Virus genome (UHGV): UHGV-0058547
Length of the DNA stretch: 11,709 nt
From: a virus
Strand: one strand, 5' to 3'
The translations under genes were made by a program, and so were the position numbers. Position 1 is the stretch's first letter, and each line of letters begins with the position of its first letter. This document shows, piece after piece, positions 4,330 to 7,661 of the stretch. The notes under the pieces were generated by a model that worked only from the letters and a program-made list of their open reading frames with translations, ran no database searches and was not told the origin of the DNA.

Positions 4330-4366
4330 AGGCCGCTGCGGGATTCGATTTTCGCAGCGGCCTTTT
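4330..4366 (+). terminator. Rho-independent terminator ending the plus-strand accessory operon
   Basis: An 11-bp perfect GC-rich stem, AGGCCGCTGCG (4330-4340) with CGCAGCGGCCT (4353-4363), has a 12-nt loop and is followed by TTTT. Confidence 0.8.
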
Positions 4367-4396
4367 CAACATAACGAGTCCTACATTATGCGCACC
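4364..4396 (-). other. dif-like Xer recombination site A (atypical 11-bp central region)
   Basis: The minus strand reads GGTGCGCATAA-TGTAGGACTCG-TTATGTTGAAA. E. coli dif is GGTGCGCATAA-TGTATA-TTATGTTAAAT. The XerC arm matches 11/11 and the XerD-like arm 9/11, but the spacer is 11 bp. Confidence 0.6.
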
Positions 4397-4555
4397 AACA
4401 TAAACCAAGGGAGAATCCAGTGATTTGTGGACATCCTTGTTCTCGCAGAATATGGATGTGCTGAGTCTGGTTGGTTCGCCTAACGGTTGAAATGTCTTGC
4501 GGCCTTCACTGGGCTTGTTGAGTGTTCTGAATGTTCGCTTCAGGAACTGATTCAA

Positions 4556-5647
4556 ATGAAACGATTAATACTTGCTGCGACTGTAATAAGTGCAAGCCTG
4601 CTGCCATTTACCTGTTCGGCAAATGCCGACTCACTGGGTATCAATAAAGACTGCGATAACCATCCTGTCAGCCAGTACGGCATGGACACCATTACCGCAT
4701 TCAGTCAGTACAAGACGGAATCGAAAAAATTTAAAGATGCACTGACTGCGTTCTGCAATAAAGGCAAAACCATGGGCGACATGGGATTTGAAGCTGCCAA
4801 TGCTCACTCTCTTGCTGAAGCAAGGAAATGGACTGACTCCAGTCTTCCGGGGGGAAATGAAGAGCAGAAAAAATTTTCAGCAGCCATGGGGAGCCTGCTT
4901 TACTATGCAATGCTGAATGGATTCTCTGGTTTTGACTATCCCAGGTCGCCCGAGCAAAAAGAAAAATCAGTAAGCACATTTAATCCAAATGAGATATGTG
5001 ATGACATATCATCTAAAGCAGCCAAATATTCAACCTCGAATCTCCCCCCTCAAGTACAGATTTCATTAGCTGAGTGGAATCAAATCAAAGGCGAGTTTCA
5101 GATGGTGTGTTTTGCGGGAGTTATGGCGGGTAACAATCGCCAGTCGGTTGACTCAAAAATATTGGCTGGAATGAATGATATAGGCCCAGAAGTGAATTTG
5201 AGTGCTTATCGTTCTGGTTCGGAATACCCAAAGCCTCGCAGCAAAAACAACACGGAAAAAATTGATGCTACAGCAAGGGAGAAAGCGGCTGCAAAGAAGA
5301 AAGCAGATGCAGCCAGAAAACAAAGTGCCACCAACAAAACAAAGCAGGCTGACGATTATAAATCCAGGAGTGTTCGCCTTGACTCCCCCGATTTTCAACG
5401 CTTTCAGTCTTCACTCAGAAATGAATTTATGCGGCGAATTGGTGATGCGAAGCGTTTTTCAGGAAAAGAATGTTCAATAAATGTCTGGATGTCACAGAAA
5501 GGTGAGGTTCTGTCAGCCAGGAAGGAATCCGGAGATGAAGAGCTTTGCTCTGTGGTATTGCAGGCATCGAAGGGAATGAGGCTTAGCCCTATGAGTAATG
5601 AAGTTTACGGAGTGTTCCGTAATCCATCCCTCAACTTTAAATTCTAG
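4556..5647 (+). CDS. Secreted protein with TolA domain II/III-like C-terminus (363 aa)
   Basis: ATG at 4556. The track ORF instead starts at an upstream TTG. Sec signal MKRLILAATVISASLLPFTCSANA|DS. There is a Lys/Ala-rich stretch REKAAAKKKADAARKQ. The C-terminus is GKECSINVWMSQKGEVLSARKESGDEELCSVVLQASKGMRLSPMSNEVYGVFRNPSLNFKF, compared with the E. coli TolA C-terminus GKTCTLRIKLAPDGMLLDIKPEGGDPALCQAALAAAKLAKIPKPPSQAVYEVFKNAPLDFKP as recalled. Confidence 0.85.
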   Translation: MKRLILAATVISASLLPFTCSANADSLGINKDCDNHPVSQYGMDTITAFSQYKTESKKFKDALTAFCNKGKTMGDMGFEAANAHSLAEARKWTDSSLPGGNEEQKKFSAAMGSLLYYAMLNGFSGFDYPRSPEQKEKSVSTFNPNEICDDISSKAAKYSTSNLPPQVQISLAEWNQIKGEFQMVCFAGVMAGNNRQSVDSKILAGMNDIGPEVNLSAYRSGSEYPKPRSKNNTEKIDATAREKAAAKKKADAARKQSATNKTKQADDYKSRSVRLDSPDFQRFQSSLRNEFMRRIGDAKRFSGKECSINVWMSQKGEVLSARKESGDEELCSVVLQASKGMRLSPMSNEVYGVFRNPSLNFKF

Positions 5648-6460
5648 TTCATGCCGGGTAAGAGTCTTCACTTTTGTGGGGATTCTTATTTTCTTTTTGT
5701 TGTTATTGTCAGCTCAAGCCGCATGGCTCTCCTGCGGAGGGCTTAATATTGGGATAATATTGAAACATCAAAGACAGATGCAGATAAGTACAGAAAACCG
5801 ATAATAACAATTAAACAGTAAGTCTGTATAAGAGAATAACAGAATATATAAAAGAATTAACCCCGGTTGGCGATTTGGCGATGGTAACACAGATATTTAA
5901 ATCTGTAAAATGGTTATATTTATTTTTTTATTTACCCACCCTATCGGGTGATTCCGGCGCAGTCCTGACCCTGAGTACGCTCCCTGTAATGCACCATGCG
6001 CAACGCCAGAGTCAGTGGCAATGCAAAGCCATGACTAAGGCCAAAATCACCCCAAAACCGCATACAGGCAGTCAGCGGTCACGATGTAAGCAAAATACGA
6101 GATACTGTATAAATAAACAGCCCTGCAATTGTCAGGCATATGCGCCCTCTCACACTGACACCCCCCCTGTTCCGCCCTGTTTATTGCATCTGTACAGCCA
6201 TCTGAGCGCATCCGGCTGCAACCTGACGCATTTGCATGTGCCGTATTAATGATGCCACACAGAGCGCCTGACGGTTTGTACCATCATCTGTCACAATTCA
6301 TTGTTTGAAAAATTTTACATTTTATTTTTTGAAGTGATTACATAAATATAATCCATCTCTCCGGCATGAGTGCCTGACTGAAGGTGAATCGAAAAAGAAG
6401 GACCCGCCCCGATTCTTTTTACTCCCTTCCCTTTCAGTTAAATCACGCAGGAGAAATATC

Positions 6461-7408
6461 ATGCCCCGCTACAAAAAAGGTATCCGTAATAATTGCTTTC
6501 ATCAAAATTATACTCATGACGTATTGTTCCCCGGCGCAACATTCAGAACCCGACATAATGGAGAATGCGCCATTCTTGGCCGCTCTGATGATAAATCAAG
6601 GCGAGGCTATTATGTCGTGGAATTCAAAGACAGTGGCATCATCAAGGAAGCCTATGGCTCGCATATTAAAACTGGTTCTGTATCAGACGAAGCTTTTCCA
6701 TCATCGGAGGAAGAACGACGAAAGTTACTGATGACACCAAAATATTACGGCGTCGGATATATTGGTAATGGATGTCATTCAACTATTGAAAACACCCGAA
6801 CACACCAAAGAACGAGAGCATTCATACTCTGGCATAACATGCTGGCAAGGTGCTACATGACAACCAAAGGGAAGCAGTATTTTAAAGGCTACAAAGGTGT
6901 CACTGTATGCGAGCGATGGCATAACTTTCAGAACTTCTGCAATGACCTTCCAAAATTGCATGGCTACAACAAATGGAAGGATAATCCGGGAGAGTATGAG
7001 CTCGATAAGGATTACTCACATCGCCGGATTTATTCTGCTGACACGGTGGCATTTATCAGCACAGAAGAAAATGCCAGGGAAGCTGGATTACGACGCGTTG
7101 CCATGAAGATTCCTTCCGGGCATTATCATGAAATAAATAAAATTCGAGATGAGATATTAATGGAGGCTGAAGATGAATTAAAAAACAATCAAATTCATTA
7201 TGAAGTTGTTCTTGACGGGAATATGAAAGTAATCCTGTGTGAAACTCCTTATGGCACAGTGTTGTTCTGGCCTCTCACAAAAAAGATTCAGCGTAATTGC
7301 TACATGATTGATGGTGATGTACAGGTTTATGTTTATTACCTGCGCTGGCTCATACTTCAGTGGGAAAACAGAAATCCCGACATAAACTGTGTTGCTACAA
7401 CCTGTTGA
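6461..7408 (+). CDS. 315-aa phage-type protein with WxxMxxRC...VCxRW...F...LDKD motif (homing-endonuclease-associated / DNA-binding-like family); function uncertain
   Basis: SD AGGAGA 7 nt upstream of the ATG at 6461. The motif block YGVGYIGNG...ILWHNMLARCY...YKGVTVCERWHNFQNFCNDL...YELDKDYSHRRIYSADTVAFISTEEN resembles a widespread phage protein family. That family is often annotated HNH/AP2-like, by my recollection only. The C-terminal ~100 aa are unassigned. Confidence 0.75.
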   Translation: MPRYKKGIRNNCFHQNYTHDVLFPGATFRTRHNGECAILGRSDDKSRRGYYVVEFKDSGIIKEAYGSHIKTGSVSDEAFPSSEEERRKLLMTPKYYGVGYIGNGCHSTIENTRTHQRTRAFILWHNMLARCYMTTKGKQYFKGYKGVTVCERWHNFQNFCNDLPKLHGYNKWKDNPGEYELDKDYSHRRIYSADTVAFISTEENAREAGLRRVAMKIPSGHYHEINKIRDEILMEAEDELKNNQIHYEVVLDGNMKVILCETPYGTVLFWPLTKKIQRNCYMIDGDVQVYVYYLRWLILQWENRNPDINCVATTC

Positions 7409-7451
7409 TGATGCTATAAAATAGTCATAAAATAACCGGCATTTCACAATG

Positions 7452-7661
7452 CTATCTATTAATAAGAAGAAACGAACATTCAGGATGTATCTGTAATTCC
7501 GCTGTTGCAGTGATTTTCTGTGCCAGAAAACAAGTGACAACGTCTGGCAGCTCATTGCAGAAGGCTAAATGCCAGCACTTCGTGCAGTCATTTAACATGT
7601 TCAACACATTATGCGCACCAATGGTAAGGATGGCGGGAACTGGCGTTACCGGTGCCGTCAT
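7452..7661 (-). CDS. Doubtful 69-aa ORF reading through Xer site B
   Basis: Its ATG overlaps the TGA of the upstream zinc-ribbon gene (ATGA), which looks like translational coupling. However, the sequence is not protein-like, and it spans the dif-like site, which encodes GAHNVLNMLN. Confidence 0.2.
   Translation of the reverse strand: MTAPVTPVPAILTIGAHNVLNMLNDCTKCWHLAFCNELPDVVTCFLAQKITATAELQIHPECSFLLINR
7590..7619 (-). other. dif/cer-like Xer recombination site B (8-bp central region)
   Basis: The minus strand reads GGTGCGCATAA-TGTGTTGA-ACATGTTAAAT. The XerC arm matches dif 11/11 and the XerD arm 9/11. The central region is 8 bp, as in ColE1 cer. Confidence 0.65.

Follow-up and report, generated by a model that had tools for sequence, protein, structure and literature searches.

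The 11,709-nucleotide viral genome UHGV-0058547 (hereafter the window, meaning the whole of this stretch) is a filamentous phage by the layout of its open reading frames (ORFs) and by database matches, and it carries 3.2 kb of further DNA, called the cassette below, between two directly repeated sites that resemble dif, the chromosomal target of the host recombinases XerC and XerD. The features of the locus are collected in Table 1. Comparison with related genomes identified the window as one complete unit of two mobile elements, both of which appear to use host XerC and XerD and neither of which encodes a recombinase. The first is the phage, with an attachment site (attP) that folds in single-stranded DNA; the second, the cassette, appears from its sequence to be an independent Xer-dependent integrative element (IMEX) that likewise lacks a recombinase. 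In the text and table, comparison loci carry L numbers, and a slash separates the two elements that meet at a junction.

Table 1. Features of the window and of the plasmid loci compared with it (window positions unless an L number is given)
Feature	Position	Strand	Description
Phage core, first part	1-2615	-	pII 2615 to 1521, pV 1509 to 1192, pVIII region, N-terminal pIII running off the window start
Phage accessory (swap) region adjoining attP	2743-4287	+	60-aa, 189-aa, mobilome CxxCx(11)CxxC (3503-4084) and 77-aa ORFs
Forked hairpin of phage attP(+)	4301-4398	-, packaged strand	XerC-arm stem, asymmetric internal loop, XerD-arm and GC stem, 12-nt loop
Inverted partner of site A	4303-4329	+	GGTTCGCACAA 4303-4313, TGACG 4314-4318, TTATGCTAAAG 4319-4329
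Site A	4396 to 4364	-	GGTGCGCATAA, TGTAGGACTCG, TTATGTTGAAA
Site A, central region and XerD-like arm	TGTAGGACTCG 4385 to 4375, TTATGTTGAAA 4374 to 4364	-	top strand of phage attP
Site A, XerC arm GGTGCGCATAA	4386-4396	-	cassette's own arm by junction logic
Cassette body (mini-IMEX), 3.2 kb	4397-7608	+	between the two XerC arms
Cassette end mimicking the host chromosome flank on the XerC side of dif	4397-4425	-	90% over 20 bp against the K-12 dif flank
Inverted XerC-like half-site GGTTCGCCTAA	4473-4483	+	conserved CGGTTGAAATGTCTTGC next to it
Cargo gene	4556-5647	+	secreted 363-aa protein: signal peptide, Lys/Ala-rich linker, C-terminal TolA domain III
Conserved non-coding backbone, ~810 bp	5648-6460	+	from the cassette alignment
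Intrinsic terminator of cargo gene, cargo/backbone boundary	5656-5691	+	kept in all cassette variants
Backbone gene, 315-aa probable DNA-binding protein	6461-7408	+	in every cassette variant examined
Site B	7619 to 7590	-	GGTGCGCATAA, TGTGTTGA, ACATGTTAAAT
Site B, central region and XerD-like arm	TGTGTTGA 7608 to 7601, ACATGTTAAAT 7600 to 7590	-	cassette's own core
Site B, XerC arm GGTGCGCATAA	7609-7619	-	phage's arm by junction logic
Phage terminal gene, 77-aa CxxC zinc-ribbon-like protein	7658-7891	-	PHROG 5435 at 4.5e-46
Phage core, second part	8009-11709	-	C-terminal pIII entering from the window end, pVI/DUF5455, pI/Zot 10754 to 9660
Phage core, second part, continued		-	pIV secretin 9745 to 8387, 102-aa ORF 8317 to 8009
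Cassette arms in plasmid pEk72-1	L002 1476-1486 and 4702-4712
Empty plasmid site	L039 590-617

An earlier note made from this sequence alone had proposed that both sites contain a perfect XerC arm of Escherichia coli dif together with a XerD-like arm, and this is the case: the XerC arms match at 11 of 11 positions when checked against K-12 dif (locus L006), and the XerD-like arms of both sites match TTATGTTAAAT at 9 of 11. The exact XerC arm occurs twice in the window, where 0.17 matches with at most one mismatch would be expected, and the two direct copies of the 16-mer ACATTATGCGCACCAA (4383-4398 and 7606-7621) stand 3223 bp apart, with a chance expectation of 0.00. The central region of site B was confirmed on the sequence to be 8 bp, the length found in cer, and site B adjoins the zinc-ribbon gene as described, 39 bp after the stop of the 77-aa ORF (7891 to 7658). 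Both sites lie outside credible genes, site A following the stop of the ORF at 4054-4287; the ORFs that cross them are chimeric only, and look-ups found no record of such ORFs anywhere.

Junctions in related genomes show that sites A and B are two hybrid junctions and not two copies of one site. In all junctions, read from XerC arm to XerD arm, the XerC arm with its upstream flank comes from the first element, and the second element supplies the central region and the XerD-like arm. Site B is accordingly the phage end and XerC arm joined to the cassette core with its 8-bp spacer, and site A the cassette end and XerC arm joined to the phage attP. The phage end at site B has the left flank gccatccttaccatt and the arm, as in E. 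coli C10, in the free replicative form (RF) of a Salmonella phage and at the phage/dif junction of C10, while the sequence after the arm of site A is identical at the C10 phage/phage junction and near-identical (TGTACGACTCG) in the Salmonella RF. Relatives lacking exactly the intervening segment do exist, in the form of this phage-only 7.9-kb RF, the C10 phage/phage junction and many E. coli prophages; in the first two the sequence gccatccttaccatt-GGTGCGCATAA-TGTA(C/G)GACTCG-TTATGTTGAAA runs uninterrupted into the hairpin of attP.

The converse arrangement, a lone copy of the segment bounded by sites of this kind at chromosomal dif, was also found. In LR-46 and E. coli C the cassette occupies the interval from the ydeT/fim genes to hipA, which is the dif locus, and no phage accompanies it; this bears out the suggestion that a dif-adjacent context would be found. 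The first junction in these genomes is composed of chromosome flank, XerC arm and TGTGTTGA-ACATGTTAAAT, and the second of cassette end, XerC arm and TGTATA-TTATGTTAAAT, the last being true dif; the same combination of module end and arm adjoins true dif in each of LR-46, E. coli C and CUPF09. The regenerated dif, GGTGCGCATAA-TGTATA-TTATGTTAAAT, is present at the XerD-side end in C10 and in loci L003, L004, L005, L012, L018 and L022. The cassette was detected in 97 of 5,426 complete E. coli genomes, almost always in the chromosome, and the exact 315-aa cassette protein is indexed by 1,143 blocks of the genome collection. The 3.2 kb of the window recurs at 99.9% identity in the E. coli C strains NCTC122, C122 and WG5, barring an insertion sequence: ISSen4 lies near the XerC-side cassette end (L005, NCTC122, 7121-8241; also in WG5 and C122). 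On the XerD side of the E. coli C array, the cassette is preceded by a group II intron and a helicase island.

Orthologous cassettes with the same core occur in Yersinia and in Serratia, there in tandem with core TGTTTTGA, and a conjugative plasmid of Klebsiella electrica has an orthologous cassette with core TGTATTGA. Tandem arrays contain different variants in E. coli (L012) and identical copies in Serratia. Two short-read contigs are exactly one cassette long, namely L020 (2,907 bp, Yersinia-type) and L023 (3,295 bp, Serratia-type); the two termini of L020 overlap by 30 bp and the contig stops at the Xer site, which fits either tandem arrays or excised circles. A scan of the genome collection for the cassette core, with one genome per species, gave one contig, JARKOR010000214.1, placed in a 'Candidatus Nanosynbacter' metagenome-assembled genome; it has an E. 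coli dif flank beside the cassette core, and almost certainly derives from Enterobacterales and was mis-binned. At dif itself, several E. coli strains have a frameshifted helix-turn-helix pseudogene (yneL in K-12) directly on the XerD side (L003 6518-6765; L007 4572-4780; L027 12761-12969), which may be the remnant of an older dif-integrated element.

Insertion into a plasmid was resolved at the level of the filled and empty site. The Enterobacter kobei IncF plasmid pEk72-1 matches the window at 4386-7619 only, from arm to arm, with 96.7% identity. Its junctions are GGTTCGCATAA followed by the cassette core, and GGTGCGCATAA followed by CAAAGA-TTATGTTAAAT, and joining the flanks predicts an empty site of GGTTCGCATAA-CAAAGA-TTATGTTAAAT. 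Many Enterobacter plasmids contain this predicted site without interruption, within a match of 799 bp at 99.8%, and in p49589CZ_IncFII it was read in the sequence itself; coverage of the joined flanks reached 80% or more in 642 records. The two XerC arms of pEk72-1 differ by a single base, and by this difference the crossover lies after position 4 of the arm and no further than the first base of the central region. XerC cleaves at that boundary of arm and central region.

The cassette is thus found at dif or dif-like sites, flanked by direct dif-like repeats that are hybrids of element and target, as is characteristic of an IMEX. No integrase, resolvase, transposase or replication domain was detected in its ORFs with Pfam, PHROGs or NCBIfam. 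A satellite or miniphage with the (+) origin or packaging signal of a helper was considered for the cassette and rejected, as no significant similarity to the phage was found outside the Xer arm and no Ff-type nick motif in the window. The earlier proposal of a Xer-mobilised cassette nested in an inovirus, or of stepwise acquisition through Xer, is supported by the lone copies, the empty sites, the dif context and the variation in cargo described below.

The phage backbone is ~99% identical to prophages of many E. coli genomes, including UM146, over 65% of the window. Published descriptions of YpfΦ and CUS-1 place a pair of function-less ORFs beside attR, downstream of pIV, and on the attL side an accessory segment that varies, and the organisation of the window phage agrees with them. 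The 8.5-kb phage is of the CUS-1/YpfΦ type, and it may well be CUS-1 itself, to judge from 99% identity to the UM146-type prophage and from gene organisation. The zinc-ribbon-like gene is the last phage gene before the phage XerC arm, the arm is always next to it in relatives, and 13,667 blocks of the genome collection index this gene. At the other end, the accessory region proximal to attP is a swap zone, occupied in the free Salmonella RF and other relatives (L024 2138-3207; L030/L037 5377-6446) by a Fic/Doc (death-on-curing) toxin.

Both the start and the end of the window fall inside the Gly-rich linker of pIII, and the two ends correspond to adjacent parts of one intact pIII gene in a relative (g3 642-1317 and 205-610), with ~30 bp of the GGGES/GGSS repeat missing between the mapped ends. 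The linker (window 1-97 and 11624-11705) is a tandem repeat of 12- and 15-bp units for GGGES/GGSS; the window ends join out of frame, and the copy number of the repeat varies among relatives (pIII of 410-438 aa). Since the ends lie in adjacent parts of pIII, the window corresponds to exactly one unit of a structure that is either circular or repeated in tandem, and the break falls in a short tandem repeat.

Site A differs from site B in that its central region belongs to a folded site. An inverted dif-like half-site at 4303-4329 (+), missed by the earlier note, constitutes a third site, with a GC-rich stem between it and site A, and is the bottom strand of a folded attP, pairing with site A in single-stranded DNA. 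The hairpin has a predicted stability of -30.5 kcal/mol (z = -7.43, with 0 of 200 shuffles equally stable), whereas site B has no comparable fold (z = -1.8), and relatives of the hairpin differ by only 1-3 substitutions, too few to give covariation support. The phage packages its minus strand, which is sense for the phage genes, and the two inverted dif-like sites (4303-4329 on the plus and 4364-4396 on the minus strand) are predicted to fold in it, as in CTXφ-type phages; tandem prophage copies of the phage were also observed at dif. CTX-type phages are reported to integrate as single-stranded DNA and to produce their progeny through rolling-circle replication of prophages in tandem; published lists of CTX-type IMEXs, which have inverted pairs of XerC and XerD sites, include YpfΦ and CUS-1Φ (PMC4266046, PMC4246890). 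From the fold and this listing, the 11-bp spacer of site A belongs to the top strand of a folded site and not to a duplex site, which is the solution adopted by CTXφ. The spacer was previously taken to be abnormal; its length stands as read, but not the view of it as an irregular duplex site. Likewise, the terminator placed at site A corresponds to a real GC-rich stem, but this stem belongs to the attP hairpin, and a terminator scan does not call it because the loop is 12 nt.

A 72-bp copy of half of this hairpin (window 4302-4373, ~93% identical) is present in ~440 plasmids, mostly conjugative and IncF-type, and accounts for the 1,300+ genome matches obtained in searches with the whole window. 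The copy consists of GGTTCGCATAA-TGACG-TTATGCTAAAG and the GC stem-loop (pMS7163A, NZ_CP026854; L038 2501-2571) and lies directly after a gene of the STM4504/CBY_0614 family in one plasmid examined. It looks like a fixed relic of the accessory end of a filamentous phage.

Alignment of the cassettes indicates that the family keeps the 315-aa gene and ~810 bp of non-coding DNA and swaps its secreted cargo. In the window the cargo includes, as first noted, a TolA-III-like gene: the 363-aa product has TolA domain III at its C-terminus (Pfam TolA, 6.3e-11) and begins with the signal peptide MKRLILAATVISASLLPFTCSANA. The domain matches PDB entries 3qdp, 2x9a and 1tol at E ~1e-9, of which 1tol and 2x9a are g3p-TolA complex structures (the E. 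coli domain crystallised with phage g3p-N1), and is identical to E. coli TolA-III at 27 of 99 positions. A full TolA, in which an N-terminal membrane anchor (domain I) and a long helical domain II precede domain III, was rejected, as just domain III and a short Lys/Ala linker match and the N-terminus is a predicted cleavable signal peptide; full-length TolA models score below cutoff (TIGR02794, 59.4 against 59.45; NF007065, 54.5 against 213). The possibility that other cargo might lie between the same ends was also realised, with variants of 311 and 119 aa, of 134 and 220 aa (the 220-aa protein being a TolA-III protein, 41% identical) and of 135, 110 and 117 aa. Every cargo variant examined is a signal-peptide or small membrane protein; in the 311-aa variant no TolA-like domain was detectable by BLASTP. 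From its domain and predicted export, the TolA-III cargo would most likely be a periplasmic decoy against Tol-dependent filamentous phages or group A colicins.

The non-coding backbone contains a block at ~5662-5745 that is near-invariant across genera (including AGCCGCATGGCTCTCCTGCGGAGGGCTTA), and window positions 5658-5962 match many conjugative plasmids of Citrobacter and Klebsiella that carry cassette relatives. No Rfam family was found in the 810-bp region at E<=0.1, and a hidden small gene was rejected there, as no ORF is kept between genera. The 315-aa protein resembles phage 'HNH endonuclease' families in their middle part, which is non-catalytic. Its orthologues are spread through Enterobacterales, and it was placed in no family of Pfam or NCBIfam. 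Its AlphaFold2 (AF2) model is confident (predicted local distance difference test, pLDDT, 83.5) but shows only weak fold matches to DNA-binding modules; the protein is probably DNA-binding.

Two further features of the cassette ends bear on how it moves. Beside the cassette XerC arm, 11-40 bp mimic the host flank genus by genus, in E. coli, Serratia and Yersinia (L018, L022, L006). Additionally, the inverted XerC-like half-site is conserved in E. coli, Serratia, Yersinia and the K. electrica plasmid, at 8-78 nt from the terminal arm. The reconstructed junction of an excised circle forms the same hairpin in three genera (z = -2.8, -3.8 and -4.1), with the host-like filler as the loop. The half-site at 4473-4483 could pair with the cassette core (4386-4396, 7590-7608) in an excised single strand, and the shared fold is a hint that the cassette, like the phage, may pass through a single-stranded intermediate.

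The best explanation of the window, to which a probability of roughly 0.8 may be attached, is that the cassette and a CUS-1/YpfΦ-type phage were joined by host Xer recombinases into one unit of two elements. The double-stranded core of the cassette consists of the XerC arm, the 8-bp TGTGTTGA and ACATGTTAAAT, and the exchange between XerC arm and central region duplicates the arm and creates two hybrid junctions. Chromosomal arrays suggest an order of events. From the XerC (hipA) side, the C10 array comprises chromosome, cassette, phage, phage and true dif, and the CUPF09 array comprises chromosome, phage, cassette and true dif; because true dif is always at the XerD-side end, each newcomer adds there. 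For the window, a junction of phage end with cassette and one of cassette end with phage are both required. By the simplest route, successive integrations at genuine dif, regenerated at the XerD-side end, could give the order phage-cassette-phage; rolling-circle synthesis by pII, starting at the upstream prophage origin and finishing at the downstream one, would then produce a hybrid single-stranded genome of 11.7 kb, a mechanism that CTXφ uses. Such a hybrid circle would have the window sequence and would keep an intact folded attP; the cassette could then be packaged, transmitted and re-integrated with the phage, re-integration giving the order seen in CUPF09. Joining may in this way let the cassette travel in the phage particle.

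The strongest competitor holds that the window is a stretch of a chromosomal phage-cassette-phage array at dif, collapsed by the assembler, in which the cassette is a neighbour of the phage and is never packaged. This is a serious possibility, if somewhat short of an even chance. Arrays of these elements at dif are common, an array and a hybrid circle would read identically, and a break in the pIII tandem repeat is where the collapse of two phage copies would be expected to show. The earlier claim that the cassette lies inside the phage holds, accordingly, as far as the cassette is bracketed by phage sequence, but a chromosomal array would give the same sequence. On the other hand, the chromosome/phage and phage/dif junctions of an array should branch a short-read assembly at the Xer sites, and the contig runs straight through both. 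That it is broken only in pIII makes one dominant unit, circular or in tandem, more likely than a single chromosomal array. Moreover, rolling-circle replication across tandem elements, as reported for CTX-type phages, would automatically copy anything situated between two prophages.

A second alternative is that a cassette circle recombined directly, through XerCD, with the phage RF or with a phage/phage junction, and not by successive integrations at dif. The plasmid insertion, at a site whose central region is unrelated, indicates that partners other than dif are tolerated. However, site A as a duplex has a spacer of 11 bp, and the known substrates of XerCD (dif, cer and psi) have a spacing of 6-8 bp, with which 11 bp is incompatible; all chromosomal arrays examined also fit addition at the terminal true dif. 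Direct recombination is accordingly rated unlikely. The alternative raised in the earlier note, in which one site is attP or a site for resolving RF dimers, the other is a decayed relic and the DNA between them is a phage moron, is in keeping with the variable accessory region that this phage group has beside attP, but is highly improbable: both XerC arms are perfect and neither is decayed, copies of the 3.2 kb that stand apart from any phage, at dif and in a plasmid, end exactly at the arms, and phages without the cassette have a single uninterrupted attP. An assembly chimera at the shared 16-bp repeat is equally improbable, for although the exact pair of junctions is so far unique to the window, the repeat is shorter than usual assembly k-mers and the junction types exist separately in finished genomes (the site-A type in C10, and the site-B type, with a related phage, in CUPF09).

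Several observations weigh against the joining of cassette and phage by host Xer recombinases as set out above, or against parts of it. Flank mimicry is unexplained because conservative Xer exchange cannot move such DNA, and with the inverted half-site it seems to lie outside a simple double-stranded Xer exchange. In pEk72-1, CAAAGA shares no XerC-side homology with TGTGTTGA of the cassette, and an exchange without central homology on the XerC side would be unusual compared with the XerC-first exchange described for CTXφ and VGJφ. The exact junction of phage end and cassette was not found by exact-junction scans of viral or metagenome contigs; among complete E. coli genomes this type of junction is seen only in CUPF09, with a related phage, and a neighbourhood survey of the phage terminal gene did not find the cassette adjoining it, so that the association appears rare. 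The XerCD dependence of the cassette is argued from sequence. Finally, the decoy role of the TolA-like protein is an inference alone, PADLOC having given no matches.

Among known systems, the phage component resembles CTXφ of Vibrio cholerae, YpfΦ of Yersinia pestis and CUS-1Φ of E. coli K1 in its inovirus gene order, in lacking an integrase, in its folding inverted half-sites, and, as in the CTXφ type generally, in forming arrays of prophages at dif, one end of which bears a regenerated true dif. With YpfΦ and CUS-1 it further shares the two small ORFs after pIV and the variable accessory end. It differs from them in carrying a foreign 3.2-kb Xer cassette at its attachment junction and in its accessory genes (the CxxCx11CxxC protein and others). 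Composite genomes have been described in V. cholerae, where a VGJφ-CTXφ hybrid phage, TLCφ-assisted excision of CTXφ and rolling-circle hybrids of RS1 and CTXφ occur. The likeness is that adjacent Xer elements at dif give composite genomes sent by one capsid, although here packaging is only proposed; the Vibrio partners are phages or satellites with replication genes of their own, whereas the cassette has no Rep or morphogenesis gene and the hosts here are Enterobacterales.

The cassette fits no single class. It shares with VGJφ-type attP a single duplex site with both arms and a central region that is longer than the 6 bp of dif and agrees with it only in the TGT beside the XerC arm, a XerC-side crossover and the regeneration of dif; in site B the arms match at 11/11 and 9/11 and TGT is shared with dif, with a spacer of 8 bp compared with 7. 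The cassette also differs from the VGJφ type in not being a phage, in entering a plasmid target without central homology, and in its inverted half-site and foldable junction. The TLCφ type is defined by a Xer activation factor of the XafT type (DUF3653) and an attP without a XerD arm; this class was rejected, as neither DUF3653 nor any other Pfam family was found in the 315-aa protein or the other ORFs, and a XerD-like arm matching at 9/11 is present. ColE1 cer also has an 8-bp central region, and the cassette lies in, or supplies, Xer sites of large plasmids, but its XerC arm is that of dif and not of cer, and it acts as an insertion and not as a resident resolution site. A cer-type site, which has ~200 bp of accessory sequence with an ArgR box on the XerC side, was likewise rejected: no ARG-box match with <=4 mismatches was found in 4397-4700 (0.7 expected in shuffles), and the extra BLAST matches that had suggested cer-like accessory sequences beside the cassette XerC arm came from the phage hairpin side. 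Acinetobacter pdif modules similarly are small recombinase-less cargo modules between Xer sites in different replicons, but the sites bounding the cassette are direct repeats and not inverted full sites, one XerC-like half-site alone being inverted.

The remaining comparison is with IMEXs that are not phages, such as the 57-kb gonococcal genetic island and EludIMEX-1/EcloIMEX (~29 kb, blaNMC-A/IMI) of the Enterobacter cloacae complex. These also are recombinase-less and have direct dif-like sites at chromosomal dif; the cassette is about ten times smaller and is set apart by its two-part backbone, swappable secreted cargo, tandem arrays, use of plasmid Xer sites and joining to a phage. By its sequence features, the cassette would thus be an IMEX variant with a partial fit to the VGJ type, falling outside the TLC, cer, pdif and miniphage types. 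The phage with its folded CTX-type attP, composite IMEX genomes in Vibrio and large non-phage IMEX islands are all known in kind. What is apparently undescribed is a 3-kb cassette family with a fixed backbone, swappable secreted cargo and a spacer of cer length that uses both dif and plasmid Xer sites and fuses with a phage; no prior description of this family was found in the literature, most subscription journals being outside the search.

A broader and more speculative view, for now doubtful, is that dif in Enterobacterales serves as a platform for ~3-kb Xer cassettes in which the 315-aa protein binds DNA site-specifically and directs or activates Xer, the non-coding region is structured, and the swappable secreted cargo includes TolA-III decoys that protect lysogens against Tol-dependent phages and colicins. 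In it the cassettes would integrate as a folded strand and be spread by phages from dif arrays. Integration as a folded single strand would explain both the inverted half-site and the loop that resembles the host flank.

In summary, Xer-exploiting elements are best understood in V. cholerae, where the way they interact at dif influences how the cholera toxin phage evolves, and a comparable ecosystem is found at dif of E. coli, in which members of a cassette family and a very common phage of the CUS-1/YpfΦ type are stacked in changing order and can fuse. Because plasmids and the laboratory workhorse E. coli C carry the cassette, direct tests of Xer dependence, excision, packaging and the function of the cargo are feasible. 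If the TolA-III cargo is indeed an entry decoy, a defence gene would be spread by the very kind of phage that it could exclude, and if the cassette does ride in the phage particle, this would be a route of horizontal transfer for genes that have no mobility functions of their own.

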